Positions 11,824 through 44,987 are shown, numbered from the stretch's first letter. The stretch is 64,000 nucleotides of DNA from a virus (IMGVR_UViG_3300023240_001094:1-64000); one strand, 5' to 3'. Numbers and translations: made by a program. The notes: generated by a model from the letters alone, not told the origin.

Positions 11824-12474
11824 ATGTATATATATATATATGTCTATTATGTTTACGCCTACATCAGACTTGACGGCACACCCTACTATATAGGTAAAGG
11901 GAGGGGCAAAAGAGCATATTCAAAACAACATTCTGTATGGGTTCCTAATAGAGAATCTGGACAAATAGTTATACTTGAAAATAATCTTTCGGAAGTAGGC
12001 GCATTTGCGATTGAAAGAAGACTTATCAGATGGTGGGGCAAGAAACACGAAGGTGGACTACTCTACAATAAAGCCGATGGTGGTGAAGGTAGAAGTGGAT
12101 ATAGTATATCTCGGCCACACACAGAAGAATCTAAGCAAAAAATGTCTAAAGCAAAGCAAGGTAAAAGTTATCCGAGACTTACTTCAGCTAATAGAAAAAC
12201 TGCCGAAAAAAGACGAAATGTCCGTCTATCTGAAGAACATAAAGCCAAAATATCTGCTGGCATGAAAGGTAGAGTTATGACAGAAAATCATAAAGCAAAT
12301 TTATCTAAGGCTAATGTTGGTCGTCCAGTAAGTGACGAAACCCGTTTGAAAATGAAACTAAAAAATTCAGTCAAGTCTACCTGTCCACACTGTGGTAAAG
12401 GAGGTGGTGGTAGCGCAATGAAGCGCTACCACTTTGATAATTGTAAGTCTATTAAACATTCATCCTTCGCATGA
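11824..12474 (+). mobile_element. free-standing GIY-YIG homing endonuclease with NUMOD3 repeats
   Basis: YYVYAY...PYYIGKG, LYN; repeated HTEESKQKMS / LSEEHKAKIS motifs; opposite strand, convergent with nrdA. Confidence 0.88.
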
Positions 12475-30117: not shown

Positions 30118-30639
30118 TTAGAACGGGGCCGAAGTTGCACCGCTGCGATGCAGAAGCGTGTTATAAAGTGTGTCAATGTTGAAATAAAGGTCTTCAAGTG
30201 ATCCGTTATTATCAACAATGTAGTCTGTCATCCATGGTTCAATTGTCATGGATGACTTTGGTTCTGGAGGAAGATGATCTGAGCGATCGATCCAGATAGT
30301 ATGATCTACTAGACCTGCATTCACAATACCATGAAATTCGCGTTTGTTTCGCAGGCCAGCATAGATGTCAGAAATCTCAAAGATTTCTCGTCCAATAGTT
30401 GCCGGATCATCTGCACACCGCGCAGCAATAAGATTATACCATTCTGAGCGATGAGCACCACGATCTTCGAAGCATTCCTCTACGGTAGTATAACCATATA
30501 ACGGCGCAAGAACCGGAAACACTGTTTTCTCTGCGTTGTGCATGCTTGATGACGCAAACTTAACACCGTATTTCTCTTCTAGATATTCAGCCGCGGTATC
30601 TTTACCATGACGAGCATGACCAATAATAATTAGTTTCAT
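30118..30639 (-). CDS. deoxynucleoside monophosphate kinase-like protein
   Basis: P-loop GHARHGKDT; DYIVDNNGSLEDL. Confidence 0.75.
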   Translation of the reverse strand: MKLIIIGHARHGKDTAAEYLEEKYGVKFASSSMHNAEKTVFPVLAPLYGYTTVEECFEDRGAHRSEWYNLIAARCADDPATIGREIFEISDIYAGLRNKREFHGIVNAGLVDHTIWIDRSDHLPPEPKSSMTIEPWMTDYIVDNNGSLEDLYFNIDTLYNTLLHRSGATSAPF

Positions 30640-31115
30640 TAATCCCAAGTTCCATCCCATTTATAAAAAATATGAACACCGTACCTTACTGTCTCATCCA
30701 TTTGATACGCCCAATGTGGCTTATCAATATAGTCTGCATAGTAAAAAGTAGCGGAGCCCGTGTTGTCTTCTAAAGTGTTATTATAAACTGCTTCAGCCAC
30801 TTTGTAAACCTCTGAATAAAGTTCTTTATTGCCTGGTGTGTGGTTTTTCACAAGGTGTGTCCATGAAAACTGAAACGGTTCAAATACAACCTCACATACG
30901 GTATTTGGCCAGTTGCTATGCGCAACCCTATTCATAGTAACATGAGCAACTGCGCGTTGCCCTTCAATAGATTCTGATCTAGCTTCAAAATATATGTTCT
31001 GTGCCATACATCCAATTTCAGCTGAGTGCTGTTCCTGCTTTGCCGTTGCAGCAACAGCACCCAGTACAAATATTCCGCCGATCATGACGTTCGATAGTAT
31101 ATTTATTGTCATCAT
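30639..31115 (-). CDS. SleB-family cell wall hydrolase
   Basis: CMAQNIYFEARSE, VA.V..NRV, PNTVC.VV, QFSW, HIFY. Confidence 0.9.
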   Translation of the reverse strand: MMTINILSNVMIGGIFVLGAVAATAKQEQHSAEIGCMAQNIYFEARSESIEGQRAVAHVTMNRVAHSNWPNTVCEVVFEPFQFSWTHLVKNHTPGNKELYSEVYKVAEAVYNNTLEDNTGSATFYYADYIDKPHWAYQMDETVRYGVHIFYKWDGTWD

Positions 31116-31194: not shown

Positions 31195-31881
31195 TTACTG
31201 ATTTGTAACAAACTCATCTACCATCGGGAATACTGTTGCGATTGCCTTAGCAACTTCCCTTGCAACTTCGATATGCTCTTTCTGTGTTCCATTTCCAGAG
31301 CGTAGTTCAATATAGTGGACCCATGAACGAAGTGTGCCATTCATATATATCTTACTTAGAGTATTGCCTTCTGGGAAAACACATCGTGCTTGTTCCTTAG
31401 CAATACCACGTGAGATAGCCCAATCATAAGACTCTCGGGCTTTTTCAATTACACTCAGTTGACGTGCTGCCCATTCACGCTGCAATTCCTGATCTTGAGT
31501 CTCAACGCTATTCTGGCGATTCTTATGGTCTTGAAGTCGTGCTTCTCTCAGAACAAAAGAAACATCAAGACTGTCAGGATCGGCATAACGCTGACTGAAC
31601 TCTTGAAAATAGAAGCTTCTGTGTCGAAGAATTTGGCGTGCAATATCACGTGTTGTGTCAATACCAATGGTTGCATTACACATTTCAAGTGGTGACCAAT
31701 GCTTATGTTTAACGAGATATCTAACCAGCTTTTCACCAGACTCGCTGTTGAACTGATTAGCCGGGTTAGATACTCTCGCGCAGTAAGCGATGAGCTCAAG
31801 AGCATCATCAAAATGCTCTTTAAACTCATCAGCGGGTGCTGGTTGAACTACTAGAAATGCCTTTGGTTTCAGGTAATTCAT
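31195..31881 (-). CDS. thyX: FAD-dependent thymidylate synthase
   Basis: HWSPLE, RQILRHRSF.FQEFSQRY, TQKEH. Confidence 0.95.
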   Translation of the reverse strand: MNYLKPKAFLVVQPAPADEFKEHFDDALELIAYCARVSNPANQFNSESGEKLVRYLVKHKHWSPLEMCNATIGIDTTRDIARQILRHRSFYFQEFSQRYADPDSLDVSFVLREARLQDHKNRQNSVETQDQELQREWAARQLSVIEKARESYDWAISRGIAKEQARCVFPEGNTLSKIYMNGTLRSWVHYIELRSGNGTQKEHIEVAREVAKAIATVFPMVDEFVTNQ

Positions 31882-33612: not shown

Positions 33613-33910
33613 CTGATTCCTTTTCCTCCAGTGCTTTCACTGAGTACGTTAATATAGATGATAATACATTACTTGCGTGTTCTTGTAAACCAGTATTTTC
33701 GTCGGTTAAAGAAAGATCTGGGGAGGAAACAACATCAAAGTTAAACTTTAGATATTCATCATCGTCAGACACAGTAAGCTCGCTAAACTTGATGACAGTT
33801 TCAGTATAGTCCCCAGTGAGAAGGCGAACGTCCCAATTTTCGCCTTCACTAGGAACCAATTCATAATCTACATTCTGTTCGAGTAGAATTGTTTCTTCAT
33901 ATGTGTTCAT
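33599..33910 (-). CDS. gp40-like protein
   Basis: Position between uvsX and 41; LKFNFDV. Confidence 0.55.
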   Translation of the reverse strand: MNTYEETILLEQNVDYELVPSEGENWDVRLLTGDYTETVIKFSELTVSDDDEYLKFNFDVVSSPDLSLTDENTGLQEHASNVLSSILTYSVKALEEKESDDKR

Positions 33911-34989
33911 TAGTCTTCCTCTGGGTCCGCTGATACAATAGCCGGTTGATCTACAATAGCATTCATATCAACAAGTGACTCATGGCCAATCTGATATTGC
34001 TTTTTAAGGAACTCTTTAAAATCAGTATCCTTCATAATTGGATCCCAGAATTCGCCACTGAGAGTATCTTTCTCTCGGCGCTTTGGATCCATAAGCTCAC
34101 CAGTTTCTTGATCAACTCGGCAATACCAACCAGCGCTTGGTTTAGTGACGTATCCGCCAGCCATAGCAGCATCTAGCAGACCGGAGTATTTCTCAACACC
34201 ACCAGACCATGAAACAGAGATAGGAATCTTAGATTTTTCTTTGACGTAACGTGATTTTTCAACGTTGATCACAAAGTCATAGCCCATAATCTCAGTGCCT
34301 GATTTATTTTGGCGACGACCAAGAATCCAGATGTTGTCGGCTGAGTAGTAAATTCCAGTGCCGCCTGAAACAATTGCCTTAGGAAACAGACCAATTTCTT
34401 GATATGTGTGGTTGATAGCCAACATCGGAATGTTCTTCATGGCAAGATATGGAGTAGCCATACGGAACAGGCCTTTAAGAGCTTTTGCGCGCGACATATC
34501 CGCTACTGATTTTTCGTTCAGCGCATCTTCCATTTCTTTCTTAGATGCAAGGTTACCAATAGAGTCAATAACAACAATGACGTTTTCCTTACGGTCAATT
34601 GACTCAAGCTGGTTAATCAGGTCAAATTTAAGTTGCTCCACGTTCATGATTGGTGTGTGAAGAACTCGTGCTGGATCAATACCGAATTGCTTGAAGTACG
34701 ACTGGGGTGAACCAAATTCCGAGTCATAAAATAGGATAACAGCATCCTTATGCTTATCAAGATATGCACCTGCCATAAGCAAAGCAAATGATGTTTTAAA
34801 GTGTTTTGACGGACCAGCCAATACTGTAAGGCCTGAGGAAAGTCCACCGTCACAGTCACCAGAGAGCGCTACGTTAACCATAGGAACGCTTGTTGGAACT
34901 TGATCTTTTTCGTTAAAGAACTTAGATTCAGATAAGATTTCTGTTGTCTTAAGTGTAGAGTTCTTTTTTAGTTTGTCCATAATTGACAT
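33910..34989 (-). CDS. uvsX: UvsX recombinase
   Basis: AGPSKHFKT, YDSEFG, DSIGNLAS, ADMSRAK. Confidence 0.96.
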   Translation of the reverse strand: MSIMDKLKKNSTLKTTEILSESKFFNEKDQVPTSVPMVNVALSGDCDGGLSSGLTVLAGPSKHFKTSFALLMAGAYLDKHKDAVILFYDSEFGSPQSYFKQFGIDPARVLHTPIMNVEQLKFDLINQLESIDRKENVIVVIDSIGNLASKKEMEDALNEKSVADMSRAKALKGLFRMATPYLAMKNIPMLAINHTYQEIGLFPKAIVSGGTGIYYSADNIWILGRRQNKSGTEIMGYDFVINVEKSRYVKEKSKIPISVSWSGGVEKYSGLLDAAMAGGYVTKPSAGWYCRVDQETGELMDPKRREKDTLSGEFWDPIMKDTDFKEFLKKQYQIGHESLVDMNAIVDQPAIVSADPEED

Positions 34990-35017
34990 TCATCATTCTC
35001 CATTAGATAAATTATGT

Positions 35018-35845
35018 TTATTCATATTGTACTTTTTGCTCGATTTCACGCGAGTCTTTTTCATAGTTCTTGCGGTACTCATTATTGGCTTTAATCACCG
35101 CGTCCAATACAGAAAGATCAGGGCAGAAGTTACGAATGGCTGCAGTGTCCTTAGGGAAGCATGAACCACCATAACCGCGTTTACCATCAAAACCTGGAAC
35201 CTTCATATGTGAATGTCCGATTCGTGGATCTGATCCAATAGTATTTGAAATTACATTGTATCTATCACCGGTATTATCTACCATATCTTTCCACTGATTG
35301 AACCATACGACTTTCATAGCAAGAAAAGAGTTAATGCCATACTTAACAAAGCTTGCTTCACTTGCTGTCATATAATGAACAGGAGCCGGATTACAATTTG
35401 AGTTAAACTTGTAGAGGTTTTTAACTCGTTTTGTAAATTCAGGATGGCCACCAAGAACGTGGAACTCAGGATTTAGAAACTCGTCAAAGGCATTTCTCTC
35501 GGTAAGAAATTCAGGGTTATAAACGAAGCGCTTATATGCACAGATATTTTCAATGATATCTGGAGTCACTGTAGACTTGATAATAACTGTTCCTGAGGCC
35601 ATTTGGTGAAGATGTTTAGCCACGGAATTGATGATTGTGTCATCAATTGAACCATCAGGTCCCATAGGCGTTGGAACACACACAAATGTAAAGTCGGCAC
35701 CGAAGTCTTCCATATCATCAATGTTTGAATGACCTTGATACGGATCAACAATCATAATTTCATTTGATGAATTACGAAAACCAAATTCAACGGCTTTTCC
35801 AACGAAGCCGTATCCAATAATAGCAATTTTGGTAATCTTTTTCAT
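35018..35845 (-). CDS. UDP-glucose/GDP-mannose dehydrogenase family protein (short form)
   Basis: GYGFVG, CVPTP, IKSTV.P, NPEFL, K...NSFLA.K, GYGGSCFPKD. Confidence 0.9.
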   Translation of the reverse strand: MKKITKIAIIGYGFVGKAVEFGFRNSSNEIMIVDPYQGHSNIDDMEDFGADFTFVCVPTPMGPDGSIDDTIINSVAKHLHQMASGTVIIKSTVTPDIIENICAYKRFVYNPEFLTERNAFDEFLNPEFHVLGGHPEFTKRVKNLYKFNSNCNPAPVHYMTASEASFVKYGINSFLAMKVVWFNQWKDMVDNTGDRYNVISNTIGSDPRIGHSHMKVPGFDGKRGYGGSCFPKDTAAIRNFCPDLSVLDAVIKANNEYRKNYEKDSREIEQKVQYE

Positions 35846-35982
35846 TAATGCTTCCCTACAGAAAAAACGCTTATAAGGCGAGAGCCTTCTTCAACAGCAC
35901 GACGTTTAACCTCACTTACAGTAATACCATGCTCATCTGCTACTGCTTTATATAGTGCATCGATAGCTTCTTTAGTTGACAT
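35845..35982 (-). CDS. small hypothetical protein (45 aa)
   Basis: Manual translation MSTKEAIDALYKAVADEHG...; overlaps both neighbours. Confidence 0.5.
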   Translation of the reverse strand: MSTKEAIDALYKAVADEHGITVSEVKRRAVEEGSRLISVFSVGKH

Positions 35983-36919
35983 TATAATATCCTTTGTACC
36001 ATGTCATAAATTTCTCGACACCAACCGGTAATGGTGTAGATGGACTATATCCAAGTTTTCTAATCTTTGCTGTATCGGACCAGGTGTCTTTGGCATCAGC
36101 CGGATGCATGTCAGCCAATATACGCTTTGCCTTTTTACCTAGATTAATTTCGATATGATCAACAAAATCAGTTAGTTTAACCTGCTGTCCATAACCAATA
36201 TTATATATCATATCTTCAGGATGTACACGTGAAATGGTGTTGTTCACAAGAATAACTATACCATTAACGATATCATCGATGTATGTAAAGTCACGAGTCA
36301 TGTCACCGTGATTGTAGAGCGTGATCGGATTACCCTTTACGATATTATTGGCAAAGTCAAAGAGTGCCATATCAGGTCGACCCCAGGGTCCGTAGACCGT
36401 AAAGAATCGAAGGCCTGTTGTATTTTTAATTTTAGAGCAGGCAAATTGTGACTCGTTGGCAACCTTTGTCATAGCATATGGATTAGAAGCTCTACCGACA
36501 TTGTCATCCTCAGTCCATGGAAGAGGGTTTCCGACCATACAGCTTGATGTCGAGGCATATAGCACGTGATCTACACCATGCTTAACTGATGCGTTAATAA
36601 GATTCTGTGTGCCGGTTACGTTATTATCAATGTATTTTTGAGGATCGGCGAGCGAGTGTCTCACGCCTGCATAACCAGCCAAATGAATAATCACATCAGG
36701 TTTATGATTACCAATATATTCCTCAACAAACTCGGCATCCTTTAAATCACCATATGGAACTGAAATAGAAAGTTGATCAGCCCGAGCATATTTTAAAGTC
36801 TGGTCATAATAATCATTATAGCTGTCAAATGAGCACACTATATGACCGTCCTCAATTAAACGGTTAATAACATGAAACCCGATGAATCCCGCACCACCAG
36901 TGACTAGTATTTTACTCAT
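35972..36919 (-). CDS. NAD-dependent epimerase, UDP-glucuronate 4-epimerase-like
   Basis: TGGAGFIG, HLAG.AGVR.S, YAMTK, LRFFTVYGPWGRPDMA, RDFTYIDD. Confidence 0.9.
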   Translation of the reverse strand: MSKILVTGGAGFIGFHVINRLIEDGHIVCSFDSYNDYYDQTLKYARADQLSISVPYGDLKDAEFVEEYIGNHKPDVIIHLAGYAGVRHSLADPQKYIDNNVTGTQNLINASVKHGVDHVLYASTSSCMVGNPLPWTEDDNVGRASNPYAMTKVANESQFACSKIKNTTGLRFFTVYGPWGRPDMALFDFANNIVKGNPITLYNHGDMTRDFTYIDDIVNGIVILVNNTISRVHPEDMIYNIGYGQQVKLTDFVDHIEINLGKKAKRILADMHPADAKDTWSDTAKIRKLGYSPSTPLPVGVEKFMTWYKGYYNVN

Positions 36920-37758
36920 CCAAAGATATCCTCAAGGATAGAAGTTTCAGCTTGTTTCTTTTTAACAGCGTCTTTATACGCTTTAGACCACTGCACATGA
37001 CACGCAAGCTGCTTAAGACCTTTCAGTGGACCACTAAGTGCTTCTTTTTCCTTTAGCTTAATATAATCTGGATAGAGAGCCTGTAGCTTAGTGTGAACTT
37101 CATTGATAAGATCAGTTGTTCTATATACTGAACAACCACCCTTTTCATTTGTGACAGCAACCGTCACACGGAACTTTGTTGAAATACGATTCGCATAACC
37201 CTGGGTCAACAACTGAAGATTAGCATCAAAGTCCTGAGCAGTTGGCAAACGGTCCCAGATAAGATCACGTGGTAAGTTTGCAGAGTCAAAATAGCAATTC
37301 GTCATAATACGTGCATTATTCATGATTGGCCAATAGAACTCGGATGGAACAACTGTTGAGGTTGCGAAAGCACCATGGTGAATTCCCTCACTCATCCACG
37401 TATCAAAATCAGTAAAGGCATCATCAAAATCCTGCGGAGTCATTTCACGCGTGGCCCATTTAGTTGTAACATTGTCGGCAGGAGTCGCAGGAGCTTTATG
37501 TTTAAAATAAATAAGATCATCATCAAGAACCATATGCTTTGTTCCATAAAAGTTATCCCAGATCCATTGGCGTGTAGGCGATAGCTTGTTTATTTCCTTT
37601 GGTAGACGAAGTACTTTATTAGGATAGCGCTCGTTCATTGCATCATATTCATGGTCCTGAACAACAAATTGAACCATTGACTTAAATTTGTCAGGCAGGC
37701 GGTTATACGTTTTTTGTTTGTCCATACGACCGAGGGTTGGAATGATTAGATGTTCCAT
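36916..37758 (-). CDS. GT-A glycosyltransferase of the TET/JBP-associated (TAGT) / hmC glycosyltransferase type
   Basis: IIPTLGR, PTRQWI, VLDDD, QDFD..LQLL..GY, GGCS. Confidence 0.75.
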   Translation of the reverse strand: MEHLIIPTLGRMDKQKTYNRLPDKFKSMVQFVVQDHEYDAMNERYPNKVLRLPKEINKLSPTRQWIWDNFYGTKHMVLDDDLIYFKHKAPATPADNVTTKWATREMTPQDFDDAFTDFDTWMSEGIHHGAFATSTVVPSEFYWPIMNNARIMTNCYFDSANLPRDLIWDRLPTAQDFDANLQLLTQGYANRISTKFRVTVAVTNEKGGCSVYRTTDLINEVHTKLQALYPDYIKLKEKEALSGPLKGLKQLACHVQWSKAYKDAVKKKQAETSILEDIFG

Positions 37759-38192
37759 TCAATAAATTCCCATTTTACATTTGCCTCAGATAGCATCTGA
37801 GATGAAAGTTTCCATGATGCCTTCCACTTGTCACTGACATCTTGCAAAGGCATTACTACACGCTTTACACCAACCTGAATAACACCTTTAGCACATTCGG
37901 AACAAACCGGCAAGCCAGTCACATATAAAGTGCAGCCGTCAAGTGACACACCGTTATATGACGCGTTATAGATTAGATTTTGTTCAGCATGTACTATATA
38001 TCTGTATTTTTCCTCGCGCGTATTGAGGCGCTCTGATGTATCGGCTATTCCACGCGGGAAACCGTTAAAGCCCTGTGATAAGACCTGGCCTTTAGATCCA
38101 ACAGCAACAGCTCCAATTTTACTTGACGGATCTTTTGACCAAGATCCAACCTCATATGCCAGTTTTAAATAACGCTCATCCCACGTAGTCAT
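37746..38192 (-). CDS. cd: dCMP deaminase
   Basis: SKDP, GFNG.P, HAE.N, PVC..C. Confidence 0.92.
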   Translation of the reverse strand: MTTWDERYLKLAYEVGSWSKDPSSKIGAVAVGSKGQVLSQGFNGFPRGIADTSERLNTREEKYRYIVHAEQNLIYNASYNGVSLDGCTLYVTGLPVCSECAKGVIQVGVKRVVMPLQDVSDKWKASWKLSSQMLSEANVKWEFIEWNI

Positions 38193-38230
38193 GATATATT
38201 ACTCCAATTTATAATACTACTATACAACAT

Positions 38231-38458
38231 TCACCCTGAAATGTACACATCATTTTTCGGTCGATACCAAACTTTTTGATTATGAATTCTACCGAGAAGA
38301 TCATAAATTGCAGATGTTTCCTCACTAAGGTCTAAAATCTTTTTTGCCGTAGTTGGTGTCTGACAGAGCTTTGAAAGCTCCGCCAGTCTAGTATATAGTG
38401 CCTGTTCAATATGAGAAATATCGTTGACCGTGAGTTTAAAGTTTTCATTAGGTTTCAT
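38231..38458 (-). CDS. hypothetical protein
   Basis: ORF track; LGRIHNQK.WYRP. Confidence 0.6.
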   Translation of the reverse strand: MKPNENFKLTVNDISHIEQALYTRLAELSKLCQTPTTAKKILDLSEETSAIYDLLGRIHNQKVWYRPKNDVYISG

Positions 38459-38460
38459 AT

Positions 38461-39138
38461 TTAAACCTTAACAAGATTGAAATGTTTTTCATACACGTGC
38501 AAGTTCATTACCTGCCAATGTAAGTCACCTTTTTCAACACTAACGCCATGATAATTAAGTGAGTCTACGGCATAATCCATGAGGTACTGTGCCCATGCGT
38601 AGTCATTTTTATATCCGAACACAACATCATTTGATCGCATCTGGCTTACCATATGAAGCTTACCGTCACGGATGTAGAACGTTTGAGCGTTGGTGCAAAT
38701 AAAATCATTCTTACCATTCTCGTTAAACTCAATCCAAATTGAAGGGCGGTTATAGATCATCTGGGCACGACGAGAGTCTGGATTAGAAACAAGCTCTTCA
38801 ATAGCTTTATAATACTGTCCAAAATACTTATGTGAAAACAACAGGTGTCCATAGTTAGAGTTAATTTCGCCATTATCGTTGGCGGTGTATTTCCACGCGG
38901 CTGGTGGTTCCTTATCTTTGTGTATATCATTAATATTTGTAGACATTGAGTTGTACCACTCAATCTCAGACTCAATGTAAGATTTGTTTGGAACACCAAA
39001 AATTGAAGGTTCATCAGCAATAAAGCTAGCACCTAAAATCTCAATTGTTTTTTGCCCAGTTTTATCTGCTGTAAAGTTTTCATTACGAAGTTCGTTTACA
39101 AAATATTCACGGATGGTTTCAACATTAGTTACTGTCAT
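38461..39138 (-). CDS. 42: dCMP hydroxymethylase (gp42-like)
   Basis: NSNYG, SRRA, DFICT, MRSNDVVFGYKNDYAW (Asp at the thymidylate-synthase Asn177 position), LHVY. Confidence 0.88.
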   Translation of the reverse strand: MTVTNVETIREYFVNELRNENFTADKTGQKTIEILGASFIADEPSIFGVPNKSYIESEIEWYNSMSTNINDIHKDKEPPAAWKYTANDNGEINSNYGHLLFSHKYFGQYYKAIEELVSNPDSRRAQMIYNRPSIWIEFNENGKNDFICTNAQTFYIRDGKLHMVSQMRSNDVVFGYKNDYAWAQYLMDYAVDSLNYHGVSVEKGDLHWQVMNLHVYEKHFNLVKV

Positions 39139-39556
39139 TTTTGATTAGTTCCTTTTCATATACTCTGCTTCTCAACCCTGATGAAGAAAAGCGATGATCA
39201 CGTTTGTTAAAATATAGAGAGATGCCGAGTTTACGACATTCATCCTTACCAGTGAAGTCTTTGTCTTTATATTCCTCACCAAGAACTCTAACATTAATTG
39301 GGTACATTGTTATTATATCAAGAAGGTCTAATTCTGTACAATAAACAATTATCTCATCCACATATTTTACTGCAGCAAGTTGAGTGTACCTTTCAACGAT
39401 AGATTGAATTGGTGCATTTTTTTCCGAGCGGTCTTGACTTGGATCTACCTGAAGCCCACATATAAGATACTCGCATTGGTCCTTTGCTTCTCGAAGCATC
39501 TGGATATGCCCTGAATGAAGAAGATCAAAGGTTGATGCAGTGAATCCCACTTTCAT
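39125..39556 (-). CDS. glycerol-3-phosphate cytidylyltransferase-like (TagD-like)
   Basis: TFDLLHSGH, ER, YVDE, SSS. Confidence 0.85.
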   Translation of the reverse strand: MKVGFTASTFDLLHSGHIQMLREAKDQCEYLICGLQVDPSQDRSEKNAPIQSIVERYTQLAAVKYVDEIIVYCTELDLLDIITMYPINVRVLGEEYKDKDFTGKDECRKLGISLYFNKRDHRFSSSGLRSRVYEKELIKNDSN

Positions 39557-39837
39557 TACGACGTGTATCCCTGGGAATATGATACTGTTTGATTAGCACC
39601 GGACTCTGTGTAATATATGTAAATACAAAAGCCAATAATTAGCCAGAAGATTGTAGAATAAAAGAACACTACAATAGGGCTACGTGCCTGGCGTGACGTG
39701 GCGAACACTTTACCCTTTGGTGCAAGGATGTATCTAAACCAAAGGTAGATACGGCCTGGGAGAGCATACAGTGTCCATAAAAGCGTAAAGCTTTGGCGGT
39801 CTAAAACGTCAGGGTTGCTGCTTCTTTTTCGTGCCAT
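39556..39837 (-). CDS. hypothetical membrane protein
   Basis: ORF track; hydrophobic segments. Confidence 0.5.
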   Translation of the reverse strand: MARKRSSNPDVLDRQSFTLLWTLYALPGRIYLWFRYILAPKGKVFATSRQARSPIVVFFYSTIFWLIIGFCIYIYYTESGANQTVSYSQGYTS

Positions 39838-39947
39838 GATATTACTTCCTTTTCACTGGCTTGAGTGGTTTAGTTTTCTTTTTTGTGTTCAAATTCTAGC
39901 GAATTGCACCTGATTTTGTTTTAACGAGTCTTGGCTGCTTTGCCATA

Positions 39948-40394
39948 TTATTTTCCTTTAATTGTAAGTCCGTGAGTTTCATTTCCAGTCTTTAGAGCAT
40001 CTAATACCAAGTCGCGCGGAATATATCCAATGATTTGATAATGAACTGCATCACCAACCTCAAAGTTTTTGCTCCAATCTTTCTTTATATAACTCCATGC
40101 GACAATATTATCAATAATGCCGCGCTCAAGTTTATCTCTAATATAAGCAGAGATGGTAACTTCGCGCTTGGAGTTAACATGTTTAAAGTCACAGTTACCA
40201 AAGAATTTATGAGTTGTATCATATTCATAACCCTCATAAACTGTATGTCCATTATTCAAGGAAGCCTGATGAAACTCAACAAACTCAAAATCCCACTGGC
40301 GGTACGGATCAATACCGGTTCGTGTATCAGTCGAGGCAATTTCGTTGCGGCGAGTGATAAAATCTTCAGTAACAATACCTTTATATTTAGTCAT
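39948..40394 (-). CDS. hypothetical protein, possible nuclease fold
   Basis: E...YD...DFK pattern. Confidence 0.5.
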   Translation of the reverse strand: MTKYKGIVTEDFITRRNEIASTDTRTGIDPYRQWDFEFVEFHQASLNNGHTVYEGYEYDTTHKFFGNCDFKHVNSKREVTISAYIRDKLERGIIDNIVAWSYIKKDWSKNFEVGDAVHYQIIGYIPRDLVLDALKTGNETHGLTIKGK

Positions 40395-41353
40395 TATATT
40401 TTCCTATATGCATATTCCAAAGCACGATTGGCTTCGATTTCAATTGGGCGGTTTTCATACCAACCACCATTTTCCATGTCAAACTGTTTGCATAGTTCAG
40501 CTATCTGTGTCGCGGTTATTGGATATTCCTTTTCAATAGCGCGGGAAGCTATAGCAACCATCATACCATACATTTTTGCATACCATCCTGTATCAGAAAT
40601 GGTTGCGTATTCAAGAGCCATTTTACGTGGCCAAAAGGGGCAATCGTGATAACTTGACCAAAAGATGCCAGTGTTCTGCATTTGATTTTTGCGGTGGCTA
40701 ACAACTTGCTCCACTAGCTCAGGTGGCAGCCTATCGAGAAATGATCCGGTCGCTTTAGCTCTTTCAACATAAGGATACGCAGAAAGAAGATCAGATACGT
40801 TAATAGGCTTACCGTTACCACTAAAAATAAAATTGTCTGCTTGGTTGTAATTAGCAGGAACATAATACATTCGACTAAGGTCTTTACATTGCTTATCACC
40901 AGAGTCATCAAGACGTGATTGAAGTGCAAACCAAAAGTGTTTGATTTCATCAACAGATACGTCACGATCAAGTTCGAATACAAGTCTGAACTTTTTCTTA
41001 TTAGGACGAGAGCTAGCAGTGCTATAACAAACAAAACGCCAATCAGGAACTAGATCACGAACGTATTCGTTTAATTCACCATCAATATCAAGGTCGTCAA
41101 TATCAACAGCACACCAGCCTGCCCAAGCAGTAACATTTTTGTTGGCGCGTTTGGTTCCAGCTTCGTAAACAGCCGGAGAAATAAGTTCTGCATCTAGTTT
41201 TCCTTTCTTAGGTTGATTGGATAAAGCGTATAGGAGTTTCTCTAGCTCATCAAAGCTAGAGAAATCCATTCTGCGGTGCGTTTTGTTGTCATAAATAAAA
41301 CGCTGGCGTTCATCCCACCAACGAGGTGGTTTAAATAGCGTTAGGGATATCAC
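40394..41353 (-). CDS. primase-polymerase-like (AEP) protein
   Basis: AVDIDD, YSTAS, FRLVF, D.QCKD.SR.YYVP. Confidence 0.7.
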   Translation of the reverse strand: MISLTLFKPPRWWDERQRFIYDNKTHRRMDFSSFDELEKLLYALSNQPKKGKLDAELISPAVYEAGTKRANKNVTAWAGWCAVDIDDLDIDGELNEYVRDLVPDWRFVCYSTASSRPNKKKFRLVFELDRDVSVDEIKHFWFALQSRLDDSGDKQCKDLSRMYYVPANYNQADNFIFSGNGKPINVSDLLSAYPYVERAKATGSFLDRLPPELVEQVVSHRKNQMQNTGIFWSSYHDCPFWPRKMALEYATISDTGWYAKMYGMMVAIASRAIEKEYPITATQIAELCKQFDMENGGWYENRPIEIEANRALEYAYRKI

Positions 41354-41756
41354 CGTGATTATCCTCGTGTGATGGAGGTGTCCAGCCGGAAGGCTTAAGA
41401 AGATCAGGAAGACCGAACGGATTTGGTCTGCCGGGCTTCACACCTGGTGATTTTGCCATATTTGCATCATATACCTTATCCCAAGCAGTATTGGCATCAA
41501 CGCCGAATACATCAAGTGTGCCAATGGCAAATACACAGAGATCGATAAGTCCATCAACTACTTCTTCAGAATCACGATCAAAAAGTGCAGCGTCAATAGT
41601 TTCATTCATTTCTTCCATACACATACTAAGTCGGAAGCGAAGATACTTCTTCATTAATTCAGTATCATGGCGGTTTTCAGCAAACCATTTTTTCACACCA
41701 AATTTGTGGTGCATCATTGCGATATCATTTGCCCAATCAGACATGTATTTCTCCAT
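41331..41756 (-). CDS. MazG-like all-alpha NTP pyrophosphohydrolase
   Basis: EEMNE, EVVDGLIDL, ANMAK, KP.GW.PP. Confidence 0.85.
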   Translation of the reverse strand: MEKYMSDWANDIAMMHHKFGVKKWFAENRHDTELMKKYLRFRLSMCMEEMNETIDAALFDRDSEEVVDGLIDLCVFAIGTLDVFGVDANTAWDKVYDANMAKSPGVKPGRPNPFGLPDLLKPSGWTPPSHEDNHGDIPNAI

Positions 41757-41773
41757 TATTATCAGTGATTATA

Positions 41774-42499
41774 TTATACGTTATTATGAAAGGAATGTAC
41801 ATGGTTAAATATGTCATTCCAATCTTGCACAGTTATTGAGGTACTGCACATATAGTTCTTATGCATTGCTGTAGCAAGTGGTCGGTCGTTGCCAGTGAAT
41901 CCCATAGAGTCTCCAAAGAAAGCAATCTTAGAATCCAAGGTAAAATCTCGAAGAATTTGACTTTTATCGGAACCTCTTCTAGAAATGTCAAGTCCTGTTT
42001 CGCCAGCTACCGTTGCGTGTAAGCTTGGAAAGTTGCTATTAAATCTATTTGCAATGCAGGCGCGTTCCGATGTCAGTTTATCATATTTTACATATGACGC
42101 TCTATCCTCGGGTGAAGCAGATCTACCGACAACACTAAAGTTAACCATTCCGACTCGATGTTCAATGTGTTTACCTGTTCTAATACTAAATCCGCTTGCG
42201 CGTAATTCATTCACAAGAAAGGATAAAGCAATCCCTGGAAGTTCCCAAGAATCAGAGAAAACCAATGTGTCTCCTTCATAAACCTCACTTCCACTACACT
42301 GGTAAACACGTTTACATTTGTTGTAGATAGTTTCACCAATCTGCTCTATCGTTTTAGGTCTGTCGCTGCCTGTTACCAAATAGACGTTATTGACGGAACA
42401 AAACTCTAGGAAAAGTTTTGCAAATACTGGATCCATTTTACATCTGCTCGGTGTAAGAGTTCCGTCAACATCAAATATATAATTAACCGAATATGTCAT
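41774..42499 (-). CDS. HAD-IIB phosphomannomutase-like protein
   Basis: FDVDGTLT, VTGSD, E.R.GMVNFS..GR, FFGD....GND. Confidence 0.85.
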   Translation of the reverse strand: MTYSVNYIFDVDGTLTPSRCKMDPVFAKLFLEFCSVNNVYLVTGSDRPKTIEQIGETIYNKCKRVYQCSGSEVYEGDTLVFSDSWELPGIALSFLVNELRASGFSIRTGKHIEHRVGMVNFSVVGRSASPEDRASYVKYDKLTSERACIANRFNSNFPSLHATVAGETGLDISRRGSDKSQILRDFTLDSKIAFFGDSMGFTGNDRPLATAMHKNYMCSTSITVQDWNDIFNHVHSFHNNV

Positions 42500-44987
42500 C
42501 CATAGTCACCTTTTCTTCTGAGGACCAATTAAGAACATCAAGAATAAGCTCGAGAGGTTCAAGAAATGTTTTGCTGAACTGTTTATCATAGTCAACATAA
42601 CGATGTAGTTTAAGCTCTTGAGGAAGGAAGTTCGGGAATGATATAACATTCTGACGAATAGTGTTAGGTGTTTTAAGATAACAGAATTTGATTTTATCAC
42701 CACCTTGAATTAACTCATATGATTGTTCCAAAGAACCTTCCTTAAGATAATGATTATATAGCAAGCTACCGCGAACATGAATAGGAGTGCCCTTTGTAAA
42801 GATAGTCTTTCGGTCTGACCACTTTGCAATTTCGGTTACACCTCGTGGAAAGGCAACGGCCTCAGGTGGTAGTTGCTTAAACTCAGATTTAAATTGTGCA
42901 ATGAATGACTGCGTTGCAATACGGTCACCAGTAAGCATCAACTTAAACACTTCTTTAAATTTATCACGGACAGCCTCGGGTGTAGAAGACTTAATAGCCT
43001 CAATACCCATGATTTTCATCTTAGGTTCCTTATATTGAACACCTTCTGAATTGTGTACATTAAGGATATAGCGCTTTTTGGCAGCCCAGATACCACGATC
43101 AGCAATAACCTCTCGGGCCATAACCATGCGCTTGTCAAAGGCATTCATACGTTCATATAGACTATCGTATGACTTAGCGAGAAGAGGAATGAAATGCTCT
43201 TCACAGATTTTATCAAGAGCTTTAACCGGATCAGTTGGATTAAGCTTTTTCACAAAGGATCCGAAGTTCACATAAACAGAGTCTGTGTCAATAGCAATAA
43301 CATAATCACGGCCTGTTGTACCAAGAACCTTATTCATTTCTGCGTTAATGGTTCGCTCAGCCCATTGAATAGTCAGCTGACCAGAAAGTGTGATACCTTC
43401 AGCCATCCGCATATCGAAGTATCTGAAGTAACGGTTACCAAGAGCACCATAGAGTGAGTTTAGAAGAATTTTAATAGCCATCTGACGGTTTTCAAGCTGG
43501 TTAATTTTGCGTTCAAGCTCGACAGATTTGTTCTGTTGATACTCTTGTTCAGCCCGGAGCATCTCACCTTTAACTTGTTTACGTTCAGAGTAATAGTCAA
43601 CAATAATTTTCGGAAGGAATCCTTGACGATCTTTCCTATATGCAGATCCATTGACTGCAACAGCGACATCCATATCCAGTGCTCGTGGATCTACATCGTT
43701 GTGCATGTAATGTTCTACACCATTAATGAATCGACCATCCATGGATTTAACAAGTGTTTCCGGTGACATGTTATATTGAACAATCAAGTTTGGGTAGAGT
43801 GAGTTAAGGTCAAAGGAAACAACCCACTCATGTGAACCAGTCTGTGGTGCTTTAACGTAGCCACCGGGATATGGATTTTTAATCTTGTTGGTATTGGCTG
43901 GGACCGCGATTTTAGACTTGTTAAGCTCACGGTAGATAATAGAGTCCCATATACCAGTAGTACCAAATGTATCAGAATAGTTAACGCCTGCCTTATAGGC
44001 CATAGTCAAGGCAAGAGTAATCAAATCCATTTTCTCATCAATACGCTCAACAAGTTCAACGTCTTTGATATTATAGTCAATGTACTTTTGATAGTTTTCT
44101 TTATAGAGGTTCTGTAGATTACCATATTCTTCATAGGAAAGTTTACGCTCACCGAGAACAACATAAGCAACATGATCAAGCTTATATGACTCAAGAGCGC
44201 CATATGAATAGCCAAACTTTTTAAACAGCTCGATGTAATCTAGTTGAGAAACACCCTTAATATCATAAGCTGTTTGCTTATTACCCATAACAGTAATTTC
44301 TTGTTGATCTACTAGGTTCCATGGAGAGAAAGCCTTAACAGCTTCTTGAGATCCAAGGTTTGCAATACGATTAAGAATATATGGAACATCAAAGAAGCGA
44401 ATATTCCATCCGGTAATCACGTCAGGATAGTCTGCCTTCCAAAAGGTAATATACATCACGAGCATCTCAATCTCGTTCTTGGCAACATGCTCTTGAACAA
44501 GAAGATGGCTCATCTCAGACTTTGATTTATCCCACTCACCAAAGTGAAATACGTGATACACCTTGGACTTACTTGATTTATGTGTGATCGCAGTAATTGG
44601 ATGTCTTGCTTCATTTGGATGTGGAAAACCATCCTCGGAATGGACTTCAATGTCAATGTTTGCTACATTAACCTTAGACCGGTCAAAGGTAATATCACCC
44701 GGAAATTTTGATGTGATAAACTGGTGAATAAAATTTGACGTGCCATATATCTCGGCATTGGAGATGTCGTCATACCGTTTACTAAATTCACGAGCATCCG
44801 CCATAGTATCAAAATTGATAGGTGCACATGATTTTCCGTCGATGGTTTTCCATTCAGTTTCAGTCTGACTCGGAACAAACATAGTTGGTTTAAACTTATA
44901 TTTGTTAGATACAGGCGTTCCATTCGCGGTGTATCCACGATATAGAATTGAGTTGCCGTAACGGCTAACATTGGTGTAAAAATTCAT
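42483..44987 (-). CDS. 43: family B DNA polymerase gp43
   Basis: DIEV, GWN..FD, YNIKD, SFDLNSLYP, KILLNSLYG, DTDS, KKRY. Confidence 0.97.
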   Translation of the reverse strand: MNFYTNVSRYGNSILYRGYTANGTPVSNKYKFKPTMFVPSQTETEWKTIDGKSCAPINFDTMADAREFSKRYDDISNAEIYGTSNFIHQFITSKFPGDITFDRSKVNVANIDIEVHSEDGFPHPNEARHPITAITHKSSKSKVYHVFHFGEWDKSKSEMSHLLVQEHVAKNEIEMLVMYITFWKADYPDVITGWNIRFFDVPYILNRIANLGSQEAVKAFSPWNLVDQQEITVMGNKQTAYDIKGVSQLDYIELFKKFGYSYGALESYKLDHVAYVVLGERKLSYEEYGNLQNLYKENYQKYIDYNIKDVELVERIDEKMDLITLALTMAYKAGVNYSDTFGTTGIWDSIIYRELNKSKIAVPANTNKIKNPYPGGYVKAPQTGSHEWVVSFDLNSLYPNLIVQYNMSPETLVKSMDGRFINGVEHYMHNDVDPRALDMDVAVAVNGSAYRKDRQGFLPKIIVDYYSERKQVKGEMLRAEQEYQQNKSVELERKINQLENRQMAIKILLNSLYGALGNRYFRYFDMRMAEGITLSGQLTIQWAERTINAEMNKVLGTTGRDYVIAIDTDSVYVNFGSFVKKLNPTDPVKALDKICEEHFIPLLAKSYDSLYERMNAFDKRMVMAREVIADRGIWAAKKRYILNVHNSEGVQYKEPKMKIMGIEAIKSSTPEAVRDKFKEVFKLMLTGDRIATQSFIAQFKSEFKQLPPEAVAFPRGVTEIAKWSDRKTIFTKGTPIHVRGSLLYNHYLKEGSLEQSYELIQGGDKIKFCYLKTPNTIRQNVISFPNFLPQELKLHRYVDYDKQFSKTFLEPLELILDVLNWSSEEKVTMDDIFG

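Follow-up and report, generated by a model that had tools for sequence, protein, structure and literature searches.

The window, a 64,000-nt stretch of DNA, comes from an uncultured marine T4-like phage whose 73-kb contig is ~43% complete. A preliminary description had placed a six-gene block at 35018-39556, between gene 43 and uvsX, and our profile searches bore this out: the six ORFs are present there, all on the minus strand, and their families match (Table 1). The limits of the block proved too narrow, as the genes for a MazG-like pyrophosphatase and a phosphomannomutase, both placed between the nucleotidyltransferase gene and gp43, also belong to the island. The primase-like protein, with 43-75% identity across relatives, is a conserved landmark of the island and stands outside the pathway. 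The end of the nucleotidyltransferase gene and the start of gp42 share 14 nt, and the end of the glycosyltransferase (GT) gene and the start of the epimerase gene share 4 nt (ATGA). Two small reading frames complete the island. The 75-aa ORF gave zero matches in Pfam and PHROG searches, and the candidate 45-codon ORF begins with an ATG overlapping the end of the epimerase gene and ends with a TAA overlapping the ATG of ugd (TAATG).

Table 1. Genes of the island and other features of the window
Feature	Coordinates	Strand	Basis
gp43	42483-44987		
Phosphomannomutase, HAD-type (eukaryotic-type), 241 aa	41774..42499	-	PF03332
MazG-like NTP pyrophosphatase, 141 aa	41331..41756	-	PF01503, phrog_671
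Primase-like protein, 319 aa	40394..41353	-	phrog_9765 DNA primase, E 1e-38
Small HIGH-motif nucleotidyltransferase, 143 aa	39125..39556	-	PF01467
dCMP hydroxymethylase, gp42 orthologue, 225 aa	38461..39138	-	PF00303, T4 enzyme match
75-aa ORF, in cassette	38231..38458	-	weak homologues in L054, L079
dCMP deaminase, 148 aa	37746..38192	-	PF00383, phrog_174
TAGT-type GT-A glycosyltransferase, 280 aa	36916..37758	-	PF20691, phrog_842
UDP-glucuronate 4-epimerase-like SDR, 315 aa	35972..36919	-	PDB sequence matches
Candidate 45-codon ORF, epimerase-Ugd gap	35845..35982	-	read from sequence
Short two-domain Ugd (mini-Ugd), 275 aa	35018..35845	-	PF03721 + PF00984
UvsX	33910-34989		
ThyX, flavin-dependent thymidylate synthase	31195..31881	-	PF02511, 138 bits
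Possible dNMP kinase, 180 aa	30118..30660	-	weak PF21448, E 1e-4, below cut-off
Second glycosyltransferase cluster	1061-5697		

By sequence, the protein with a thymidylate synthase (TS) fold is a true cytosine hydroxymethylase, orthologous to T4 gp42. A PDB sequence search matched it to T4 dCMP hydroxymethylase (1b49/1b5e) with 224 bits (E 1.9e-65), and all matches after the T4 enzyme had at most 44 bits; the protein is not a thymidylate synthase. C148, D145, D171, and D179 are all present, as is the motif RSNDVVFGYKND (R168-D179), which the preliminary description had quoted for its cytosine-specifying Asp. The substitution D169N in a TS homologue is described as the mark of 5-hydroxycytosine synthases (PMC13326640). 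The window protein retains the T4-like Asp (D171) at this diagnostic position, not Asn, and is thus not such a synthase; it reads RSND where PDB chains 9iqu/9iqc read RSQN at the same motif. The dCMP deaminase, also recognized before (PF00383, 70 bits; phrog_174, E 3.6e-40), would feed dUMP to ThyX, which is encoded elsewhere on the stretch as had been noted, so that the TS-fold gene is free to act on cytosine. The MazG-like protein (PF01503, 36 bits; phrog_671 nucleotide pyrophosphohydrolase, E 7e-22) may serve as the dCTPase. The dNMP kinase needed for hm-dCMP phosphorylation may, tentatively, be the product of 30118..30660, a gene found also in relatives without gp42. With this set of predicted enzymes, hmC very probably replaces C in the phage DNA.

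The hmC pathway of T4 comprises the gp56 dCTPase, gp42, gp1, Cd, and alpha- and beta-glucosyltransferases. The island resembles it in placement between gene 43 and uvsX, in a gp42 orthologue whose active-site strings are identical to those of T4, in the dCMP deaminase, and in a predicted prereplicative route. It differs in having a MazG-like pyrophosphatase as the presumed functional analogue of gp56, ThyX in place of the td gene, and donor-sugar enzymes, of which T4 has none. It also differs in the lack of an AGT member on the contig, as found in a search for the AGT family.

The GT had been called TAGT-type, and this assignment stood, with 58.4 bits to PF20691 (cut-off 27.5) and an E value of 7e-34 to phrog_842. 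Its AF2 model (pLDDT 94.1) has a GT-A fold; among solved structures, TarP came first in a Foldseek search (E 2.4e-6), and viral TAGT proteins match the model with TMq up to 0.82. TarP is also given as the best match of phage DNA GT-A enzymes (bioRxiv 10.1101/2023.12.21.572611). The residues R11, D79-D81, and D176 of the R...DDD...D motifs are conserved. Sequence and model thus support membership in the DNA-glycosylating, TAGT/TarP-like GT-A class. A point on the other side is that at the (E)D(F/Y) motif the window protein has Q where 26/36 relatives have E. A homologue of this GT adjoins gene 42 in T-even-like phages (13 of the 40 rows among the matches listed), and the enzyme likely acts on hmC DNA.

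The T2/T6 enzyme extends glucosyl-hmC, and a second-step activity of this kind (beta-glucosyl-HMC-alpha-glucosyltransferase) is also the annotation given to the T-even proteins in phrog_842. The window GT could likewise be a second-step enzyme, with the first DNA glucosyltransferase encoded in the 57% of the genome that the contig does not cover and a disaccharide as product, its outer sugar uronic acid or not. Given the incomplete contig and the annotations, we considered this reading and regard it as improbable: the identity to the T-even proteins is just ~23-27%, a profile search of the 73 kb found neither an AGT family member nor a second TAGT, and GT-A enzymes of the same class are reported to have modified 5hmC directly (bioRxiv 10.1101/2023.12.21.572611).

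The phosphomannomutase (PF03332, 66 bits; cut-off 22.4) has the DxDxT motif at D10/D12, and 15/15 of its PDB sequence matches are phosphomannomutases (best, 5ue7, E 4.6e-20). No other sugar gene of the clade is as well conserved as that of the nucleotidyltransferase (63-82% identity), which matches PF01467 with 47 bits and has an HSGH motif at residues 14-17. This enzyme had been described as a TagD-like cytidylyltransferase; the PF01467 family holds, but heptose-1-phosphate adenylyltransferase and ethanolamine-phosphate cytidylyltransferase are at least as close to it as TagD is, and its scores of 68 bits on TIGR02199 and 60 bits on TIGR01518 are far under the respective cut-offs. For the proposed further decoration from a CDP-polyol, we found nothing beyond this family membership. 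Instead, the nucleotidyltransferase gene adjoins the phosphomannomutase gene in the related loci L072 and L094, which points to a sugar-1-phosphate substrate; in L072, the phosphomannomutase, nucleotidyltransferase, epimerase, and Ugd genes are consecutive, which gives the module the look of a single pathway.

The protein taken for a UDP-glucose dehydrogenase does belong to this family but is not full length. It is a conserved short form consisting, by sequence, of PF03721 and PF00984 only, and the C-terminal UDP-binding domain PF03720 was found nowhere on the 73-kb contig by profile search. On TIGR03026 it reaches 129 bits, short of the cut-off of 189.8. Each of the best 120 homologues is 230 to 300 aa long with the same two domains, and the AF2 model (pLDDT 91.3) has UDP-glucose dehydrogenases as top Foldseek matches (TMq 0.76). 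The catalytic residue set is complete, with T92, E112, E116, K168, N172, C229, and D233 invariant in the 22 family members aligned. No tested activity for any short-form Ugd was found in the literature searched. The missing domain and the scores under curated cut-offs could mean that the protein has another substrate or is a relic, in which case there would be no uronate donor and hmC would be bare or carry a neutral sugar. Some loci also have Ugd alone: in five, at most the nucleotidyltransferase joins Ugd between the primase and UvsX, and there is no GT or epimerase. We hold this reading to be quite unlikely, since at least 120 homologues share the same length and the seven catalytic residues are kept in the 22 aligned, which argues for selection acting on the short Ugd, and since in nearly every case it comes with an SDR whose active site is specific for glucuronate.

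This SDR, in which the preliminary description had seen a UDP-glucuronate 4-epimerase-like enzyme with RFFTVYGPWGRPDMA, indeed contains that string. The best PDB matches are 5u4q (247 bits), the Bacillus cereus UDP-glucuronate 4-epimerase BcUGAepi 6zl6 (138 bits), and MoeE5 6kv9 (116 bits). The depositors named 5u4q a dTDP-glucose 4,6-dehydratase, yet it has the RFFTVYGPWGRPDMALF string. Like the latter two enzymes, the window SDR is full length, and its T124/S125/S126, Y148, K152, T174, and R181 align with T126/S127/S128, Y149, K153, T178, and R185 of the B. cereus enzyme. All carboxylate-holding residues of UDP-glucuronate 4-epimerase are thus retained together with the Y/K catalytic pair; a role of Arg185 is described for that enzyme (PMC12338863). 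Among the best 120 homologues, 10/10 functional names are "UDP-glucuronate 4-epimerase," and the short SDRs of other relatives likewise have UDP-glucuronate epimerases as best matches. These comparisons support a UDP-glucuronate 4-epimerase active site, and we classify the protein as UDP-glucuronate 4-epimerase-like.

Sequence comparison identifies gp42 and the deaminase and shows which fold the GT has and which active site the epimerase, and from these a pathway can be proposed. The island would combine a mobile hmC cassette (MazG, gp42, deaminase, and GT-A) with a sugar-donor module constant in the clade. As T4 does, the cassette would swap C for hmC ahead of replication; it would next glycosylate the hmC in DNA. 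With the substrates we infer for the mutase, nucleotidyltransferase, and short Ugd, the phosphomannomutase-type mutase would take the first step from hexose-6-phosphate to hexose-1-phosphate, the small nucleotidyltransferase would make NDP-hexose, the short Ugd would oxidize it to NDP-hexuronate, and the 4-epimerase would convert this to its 4-epimer, which is galacturonate where glucose is the starting sugar. The GT would draw its donor from this phage module, giving hexuronosyl-hydroxymethylcytosine in virion DNA. The phage cytosines are probably sugar coated, and the sugar is possibly a uronic acid. Hexuronosyl-hmC DNA from a phage-built donor is our best reading, held tentatively and a little short of an even chance; we give much the same cautious credence to a phage-made hexuronate as the donor of the GT. 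If true, the anionic base should block restriction and CRISPR nucleases.

We examined co-occurrence in 87 related loci, of which 39 span primase/gp43 to UvsX (17 with gp42 and 22 without). MazG occurs in 16/17 spanning loci with gp42 versus 3/22 without, the dCMP deaminase in 13/17 versus 0/22, and the window's GT subtype in 7/17 versus 0/22. Thus, gp42, MazG, and the dCMP deaminase travel as one cassette in related marine phage contigs. The nucleotidyltransferase, epimerase, and Ugd form a constant core that occurs also without gp42: among the 22 gp42-free spanning loci, the epimerase is found in 15 and the nucleotidyltransferase in 17, the presence of Ugd in spanning loci being fixed by how the sample was built. 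The closest relative, L043 (UvsX and gp41, both 89%), is one of these 22. A TS homologue and Tet_JBP are both missing from five type-A contigs, of which one is 86% complete. Since Ugd, mostly with the epimerase and nucleotidyltransferase, is kept without gp42, the hmC cassette looks inserted into a preexisting sugar module. Contiguity, to which the preliminary description had appealed, is therefore weak evidence, as L043 and 21 other spanning loci have Ugd without gp42.

This distribution also bears on the main rival, that the hmC sugar comes from the host pool, e.g., UDP-glucose, and that the mutase-nucleotidyltransferase-Ugd-epimerase module is an independent, clade-wide metabolic one. Its uronate would then go to other acceptors, perhaps a virion-protein glycan or a polysaccharide of the host envelope, via the second glycosyltransferase cluster, which holds two GT25 genes, weak GT8-like and nucleotide-sugar-transferase-like genes, a methyltransferase, and a sulfotransferase. 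Besides the sugar module without gp42 in 22/39 spanning loci, L043 included, this rival has on its side that GT25 pairs recur in 4/5 large related contigs and that the window alone of 88 loci joins this GT subtype to a full-length epimerase, so that their adjacency could be an accident of cassette insertion. However, AGT-family genes are directly followed by the epimerase gene in 17/18 cases among the 87 loci (one such protein, in L040, is with 112 bits a homologue of T4 DNA alpha-glucosyltransferase), GT4-type genes in 4/4 cases, and another TAGT subtype directly precedes it in 4 cases. Unrelated GT families in the same slot upstream of the epimerase argue for a shared donor, and DNA-type GTs (TAGT and AGT) occupy it in 21 loci and the window. 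Moreover, the module is always among replication genes, never with structural or GT25 genes, and in C48C1, a complete phage, the epimerase and Ugd are present, GT25 is absent, and there is a Tet_JBP dioxygenase cluster of the type usual in DNA hypermodification. We judge this rival somewhat unlikely.

The preliminary description had read the block as a candidate new hypermodification, uronic-acid-glycosylated hmC. The hydroxymethylase, DNA-type GT, and epimerase site behind that reading hold up; its novelty does not, and the contiguity argument and the CDP-polyol are weakened or unsupported. The chemistry is not new because hexuronic-acid 5hmC (433 amu) was reported earlier in Escherichia coli from a GT-A and epimerase pair of contig 57, and also from the contig 91 GT-A alone (2023 preprint, bioRxiv 10.1101/2023.12.21.572611). 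The metaviromic "subclass II" clusters of Pyle et al., compared by their description, share a TarP-like GT-A with R...DDD...(E)D(F/Y) motifs and an adjoining SDR epimerase. They are described as making 5hmC after replication with a C5-methyltransferase and a TET-like dioxygenase, whereas here gp42 is present and a search of the contig found neither of those enzymes. The Pyle pairs are described as drawing on the sugars available in E. coli; in the present phage, Ugd, a nucleotidyltransferase, and a mutase come in addition.

Two other systems share parts of this design. Virion DNA of Bacillus phage SP-15 is described as containing phosphoglucuronolactone, a uronic acid, bound to a modified pyrimidine (PMC5977210), and its genome (KT624200.1), in the part compared, clusters the genes for Ugd, a sugar-1-phosphate nucleotidyltransferase (GalU), and a GT. 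It differs in that the base is given as dihydroxypentyluracil, not hmC, with the uronate phosphate linked (PMC5977210), and in having a full-length Ugd of 436 aa, a GalU-type nucleotidyltransferase, and, in the part compared, no epimerase. The arabinosyl-5-hydroxycytosine systems of RB69 and DLP3 are reported to pair a TS-fold enzyme acting on dCMP with DNA-acting GTs and a phage-encoded route to an NDP-sugar absent from the host, encoded close to the polymerase gene in T4-like genomes (PMC13326640). By the same account, their D169N homologue makes 5-hydroxy-dCMP with flavin, where the window protein keeps D171, and their sugar is arabinose, made via an isomerase, a phosphatase, and a kinase and transferred by GT-B enzymes (PMC13326640).

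The window covers 64 kb of a 73,451-base IMG/VR contig that CheckV estimates to be about 43% complete. Its gp43 DNA polymerase shares 54% identity with that of phage C48C1 (Kyanoviridae) and 46 to 48% with those of cyanomyoviruses. Further T4 core genes, encoding the portal, gp23, UvsW, gp46, terminase, sheath, RNR, RNase H, and PhoH, lie elsewhere on the contig, and a megablast search with the block between gp43 and UvsX against 50,697 phage records found no relative at the DNA level. On these grounds, the source phage is an uncultured marine-type T4-like myovirus.

Every gene of the island is encoded on the minus strand. The six open reading frames (ORFs) of the block in the preliminary description were all present, each matching its named family, and the block is flanked by gp43 and UvsX as had been stated. 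Neighboring genes overlap by 14 nt (nucleotidyltransferase and gp42, the thymidylate synthase [TS]-fold gene), 13 nt (dCMP deaminase and glycosyltransferase [GT]), and 4 nt (GT and epimerase). The 126-nt gap between the epimerase gene and the gene for a short sugar dehydrogenase (Ugd) is exactly filled by a 45-codon ORF, which starts within the end of the epimerase gene and stops on the Ugd start (TAATG). Promoter-like sites (29 versus 25.9 ± 4.7 expected) and terminator-like sites (7 versus 4.8 ± 2.2 expected) over positions 34800 to 42700 were both at chance level.

Genes of the island in order of transcription
Feature	Position	Strand	Place in transcription order
gp43 polymerase	42483-44987	-	first
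Phosphomannomutase-type HAD enzyme (mutase)	41774-42499	-	after gp43
MazG-like NTP pyrophosphatase	41331-41756	-	after mutase
Primase-like protein	40394-41353	-	after MazG
Two small ORFs		-	between primase-like gene and nucleotidyltransferase
Nucleotidyltransferase	39125-39556	-	before TS-fold gene
TS-fold enzyme (gp42)	38461-39138	-	after nucleotidyltransferase
75-aa ORF (ORF75)		-	between gp42 and dCMP deaminase
dCMP deaminase (Cd)	37746-38192	-	before GT
TAGT glycosyltransferase (GT)	36916-37758	-	between Cd and epimerase
SDR epimerase	35972-36919	-	after GT
45-codon ORF	35845-35982	-	between epimerase and Ugd
Short Ugd	35018-35845	-	before UvsX
UvsX	33910-34989	-	last

The TS-fold protein matched the solved T4 dCMP hydroxymethylase over residues 5 to 223 (224 bits, E value of 1.9e-65), far ahead of 9iqu (44 bits), MilA (40 bits), and E. 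coli ThyA (30 bits) in the PDB. Its catalytic cysteine, C148, is found in DFICTN (DFMCTN in T4), and the cytosine-specifying aspartate, D179, is found in YKND (FRND in T4), where T4 D179 corresponds to N177D of E. coli ThyA. D145 is located three residues ahead of C148, as in T4, and was equated with E. coli L143 by counting by hand on the alignment; an acidic residue at this position is reported to admit water and lead to a non-methyl product (PMC13326640). According to the same 2026 paper, N177D homologs of TS may instead be flavin-dependent 5-hydroxy-dCMP synthases, and those of the RB69 gp48 type are marked by Asn at E. coli ThyA D169 (D169N). This identity was considered for the TS-fold gene and rejected, because the residue is Asp in the window (RSND, D171), as in T4. 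PDB chains 9iqu and 9iqc have RSQN here; the depositors name them thymidylate synthase, and we infer that they are 5-hydroxy-dCMP synthases. Taken together, the T4 match, the C148 and D179 strings, and the Asp at the D169 position identify the protein as a T4 gp42-like enzyme of the hydroxymethyl type, as the preliminary description had read it, and the dTMP supply that it had placed elsewhere is covered by ThyX and the dCMP deaminase. We consider it very probable that hydroxymethylcytosine (hmC) replaces C in the phage DNA.

The GT had been described as TAGT type, which held: it passed PF20691 (TAGT) with 58.4 bits (gathering score of 27.5) and also matched phrog_842, and PF20691 is present in all 93 GT homologs but one fragment. 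No solved relative was found by sequence. A structural model built from 36 homologs (pLDDT of 94.1) has a GT-A fold, and its nearest solved structures are TarP and TarS (E value of 2.4e-6 for TarP). Pyle et al. (bioRxiv 10.1101/2023.12.21.572611) likewise report TarP as the best solved match of their phage DNA GT-A enzymes. The nearest viral structures are TAGT proteins and a T4-like "beta-glucosyl-HMC-alpha-glucosyl-transferase." The motifs R...DDD...(E)D(Y/F) are kept, with R11, D80, and D176 each present in 36/36 sequences and D79 to D81 complete in the window; at position 175, the window has Q, and the 36 aligned sequences have E (26 cases), Q (9), or S (1). The GT probably glycosylates hmC in DNA.

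For the sugar donor, the best match of the epimerase was 5u4q (247 bits), which its depositors name a dTDP-glucose dehydratase, followed by the UDP-glucuronate 4-epimerase of Bacillus cereus (BcUGAepi) and MoeE5. Residues T124/S125/S126 (numbered by hand on the alignment), Y148, K152, T174, and R181 correspond to the T-S-S, Tyr/Lys, Thr178, and Arg185 of BcUGAepi, in which Arg185 is reported to hold the galacturonate carboxylate (PMC12338863). Among the best 120 homologs, all 10 functional names given by the sources are UDP-glucuronate 4-epimerase. No NCBIfam model was passed by the protein, the top one being GalE (TIGR01179, 136.6 bits versus a cutoff of 262.3). With the catalytic Tyr/Lys and the carboxylate-binding residues all aligned, the earlier assignment as a UDP-glucuronate-4-epimerase-like SDR is well matched by the predicted protein.

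The dehydrogenase had been called a UDP-glucose dehydrogenase, and this stood only in part. Residues T92, E112, E116, K168, N172, C229, and D233, which we take to be the catalytic set of UDP-glucose dehydrogenases (UGDHs), are invariant in 22/22 aligned members of the short family, but the 275-aa protein consists of the NAD-binding and central domains only (PF03721 and PF00984) and scored below the cutoff of TIGR03026 (129.2 versus 189.8 bits). The UDP-binding domain PF03720 is absent from the whole contig, also as a separate gene, and no GalU-type transferase was found on the contig. The best 120 homologs are all 230 to 300 aa long with the identical two-domain makeup; the short Ugd is not a truncation. 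Its model (pLDDT of 91.3) aligns with UGDHs in the N-terminal and central domains alone (TMt of about 0.5). The closest relatives of the short Ugd among the fetched IMG/VR loci (L016, L017, L018, and L021; 68 to 70% identity) have no other island gene nearby, which means that the gene is also located elsewhere in related genomes.

The description of the nucleotidyltransferase as a TagD-like cytidylyltransferase did not hold up. The protein scored 59.7 bits against TagD (TIGR01518, cutoff of 165.4) and higher, at 68.4 bits, against rfaE domain II (TIGR02199, cutoff of 181.5), and its best PDB match is an ethanolamine-phosphate cytidylyltransferase; across NCBIfam, the PDB, and the protein atlas, these three resemblances weigh alike, and only the HxGH superfamily motif is present. 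The mutase is a phosphomannomutase by Pfam, with 66 bits against PF03332 (cutoff of 22.4), D10 and D12 of the HAD DxDxT motif, and phosphomannomutases as 15/15 of its PDB matches.

We compared the island with related loci. A search with the GT gave 7 related IMG/VR loci, and a profile of the short Ugd gave 594, from which we retained the top 80, for a total of 87. ORFs were called in all of them and labeled by blastp against the proteins of the window and by three-round jackhmmer with the GT and other seeds; seed families were checked by Pfam on representatives. Tallies use the 39 loci that span primase/gp43 to UvsX, excluding the other 48; the short Ugd is present in every sampled locus by construction, and the set includes near-duplicates, with 37 distinct maps. 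gp42 was found in 17 of the 39 spanning loci. MazG occurs in 16/17 loci with gp42 versus 3/22 without, the dCMP deaminase occurs in 13/17 versus 0/22, and the GT subtype of the window occurs in 7/17 versus 0/22. This co-occurrence supports an hmC cassette traveling with gp42, composed of a MazG-type dCTPase, the deaminase, and an hmC-directed GT. The nucleotidyltransferase (10/17 versus 17/22) and the epimerase (8/17 versus 15/22) are independent of gp42. The mutase is found mostly without gp42 (1/17 versus 10/22), with the window as the exception.

The closest relative, locus L043, has UvsX and gp41 89% identical to those of the window, lacks gp42, and has the order gp43, mutase, a 315-aa TAGT of another subtype, primase, nucleotidyltransferase, epimerase, and Ugd. 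From this layout, which we call type A, and the tallies, the phage of the window seems to derive from a type-A genome by two changes: MazG took the place of the other TAGT, and an insertion between nucleotidyltransferase and epimerase brought in gp42, ORF75, Cd, and GT. In type-A relatives without gp42 (L024, L028, L043, L053, and others; e.g., L043:5397-6344), the TAGT between mutase and primase is 311 to 315 aa long and scores 135 to 149 bits. In locus L095 (1005-2985), the slot holds a different modification cassette: ahead of the deaminase and Ugd come a 193-aa short TS-fold gene (38.6 bits) and then a 465-aa amidotransferase resembling asparagine synthase. In the gp42 locus L040 (5221-7070), two radical-SAM-like genes (27 to 30 bits, at or just below the cutoff) lie between the deaminase and an AGT-type GT.

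In the mechanism we propose, hmC would be made as in T4, and the GT-A enzyme would then glycosylate it with a hexuronate made by the phage itself, which would be galacturonate if the pathway begins from glucose. This mechanism would link the GT to the uronate module, made up of the mutase, nucleotidyltransferase, epimerase, and Ugd. Plain contiguity is weakened as an argument because the module also occurs in the absence of gp42, as it does in 22 spanning loci. Other features of gene order favor the link. Counted over all 87 loci, AGT-family genes, which are homologs of the T4 DNA alpha-glucosyltransferase (L040, 112 bits), directly precede the epimerase in 17/18 cases, GT4-type genes do so in 4/4, and the other TAGT subtype does so in 4 cases. 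In the window, the GT and epimerase are translationally coupled. The order in the type-C relatives is GT, C5-methylase-like gene, short SDR, and Ugd, and the short SDR best matches glucuronate epimerases; locus L072 carries mutase, nucleotidyltransferase, epimerase, and Ugd as an uninterrupted run. There is also precedent: a GT-A and epimerase pair is reported to have yielded hexuronic-acid 5hmC in E. coli (Pyle et al.), and phage SP-15, the DNA of which carries phosphoglucuronolactone, is described with Ugd, GalU, and GT in a single cluster (PMC5977210).

The C5-cytosine DNA-methylase-like gene (PF00145, 60 to 70 bits, 396 to 408 aa) adjoins Ugd/SDR in 12/17 gp42 loci and 0/22 without gp42. 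It was seen in L002 to L007, L054, L059, L060, L063, L073, L074, and L090 (e.g., L002:8831-10057 and L054:10794-11984).

The main rival is that hmC receives a neutral sugar supplied by the host, while the uronate module serves other transferases; the window would then have an ordinary T4-type hmC system beside an auxiliary sugar module. In five gp42-less type-A contigs, one of them 86% complete, neither a TS homolog nor a Tet_JBP dioxygenase was found, which implies that their GTs have another acceptor or that the module has a different role. In five loci, the interval contains Ugd but no GT or epimerase, and the window is the sole locus that pairs its GT subtype with a full-length epimerase. 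Candidate users of the uronate are encoded at 1061-5697 of the contig, where further glycosyltransferases lie together with a methyltransferase and a sulfotransferase. Weighing these points against the gene orders and the precedents, we favor phage-made hexuronate as the GT donor only tentatively, at a little under an even chance, and regard the rival as rather unlikely.

This second carbohydrate cluster, on the minus strand, comprises seven consecutive ORFs of about 200 to 260 aa. They include two GT25 proteins, each with about 44 bits, along with a methyltransferase, a sulfotransferase (PF03567; called "galactose-3-O-sulfotransferase" by phrog), and weak GT8-like and nucleotide-diphospho-sugar-transferase-like matches below the cutoff. 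GT25 pairs are present in 4/5 large related contigs; C48C1 has none.

The complete phage C48C1 (L097) has the epimerase and Ugd with neither a TAGT nor a TS homolog, and we had taken it as a counterexample to a DNA role. This was dropped on finding an unannotated cluster (OQ984149.1, 49583-53030) that encodes a 472-aa Tet_JBP dioxygenase (62.6 bits), a 344-aa protein of no family, and a UDP-galactopyranose mutase (177 bits). The cluster suggests that galactofuranose forms the basis of a DNA hypermodification in C48C1, possibly on hydroxymethyluracil; the phage is therefore not a clean counterexample, as it likely hypermodifies its own DNA. The methyltransferase adjoining its gp43 is of the Dam type, not C5.

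An entire clade of marine T4-like phages may have a compact four-enzyme hexuronate route, made up of the HAD mutase, a 140-aa HIGH-motif nucleotidyltransferase, a two-domain dehydrogenase without a UDP-binding domain, and a 4-epimerase. The nucleotidyltransferase may take over from the domain that the dehydrogenase lacks, and the nucleotide carrier of the hexuronate may be other than UDP. Around this constant core, DNA glycosyltransferases (two TAGT subtypes, AGT, and GT4) and base-activation cassettes (gp42 with MazG and Cd, or another kind) would be swapped. The full combination, a clade-wide NDP-hexuronate route of its own, swapped GT and base cassettes, and virion DNA of the window phage with galacturonosyl-hydroxymethylcytosine at every C, is improbable when taken as a whole. 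If true, a uronic acid on cytosine would be seen for the first time in a natural phage genome.

The preliminary description had proposed a new hypermodification, and in this respect it went too far, since the chemistry is not categorically new: hexuronic-acid 5hmC is described in the 2023 preprint of Pyle et al., and a uronate is described on SP-15 DNA. Our literature search found only this preprint on uronic-acid modification of cytosine, and only SP-15 for uracil; nothing relevant was found on C48C1 or on marine myophages with Ugd and dCMP hydroxymethylase. The window resembles subclass II of Pyle et al. in that the GT adjoins a sugar epimerase, with the GT stop and epimerase start sharing nucleotides in the window. 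In subclass II, however, 5hmC is described as arising via a C5-methyltransferase and a TET-like dioxygenase, whereas the island of the window uses gp42. Neither PF12851 (TET-like) nor PF00145 (C5-methylase) was found on the 73-kb, 43% complete contig; the PF12851 search did recover C48C1. As far as our searches reach, three features are new, namely the gp42 route to the glycosylated base, a donor pathway that the phage encodes itself and whose Ugd lacks a domain, and an island of modular build across a large marine clade; the supplements of the preprint may already list such ThyS-associated contigs.

If the hexuronate reading is true, abundant uncultured marine myoviruses would have cytosines coated with negatively charged sugars, with the donor synthesized by the phages themselves, and there would be a natural prereplicative route to a base hitherto known only from heterologous reconstitution. 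It would show DNA glycans being diversified by modules, with GT and base cassettes exchanged around a donor core, and would have a bearing on sequencing, restriction, and CRISPR cutting of such phage DNA. The short Ugd would be of enzymological interest as a minimal sugar dehydrogenase.

Outside the island, one of the few plus-strand genes of the window (11824-12474) has an overlap with the end of the gene for the ribonucleotide reductase large subunit (12460-14103); its product carries the NUMOD3 motif and is likely a homing endonuclease.
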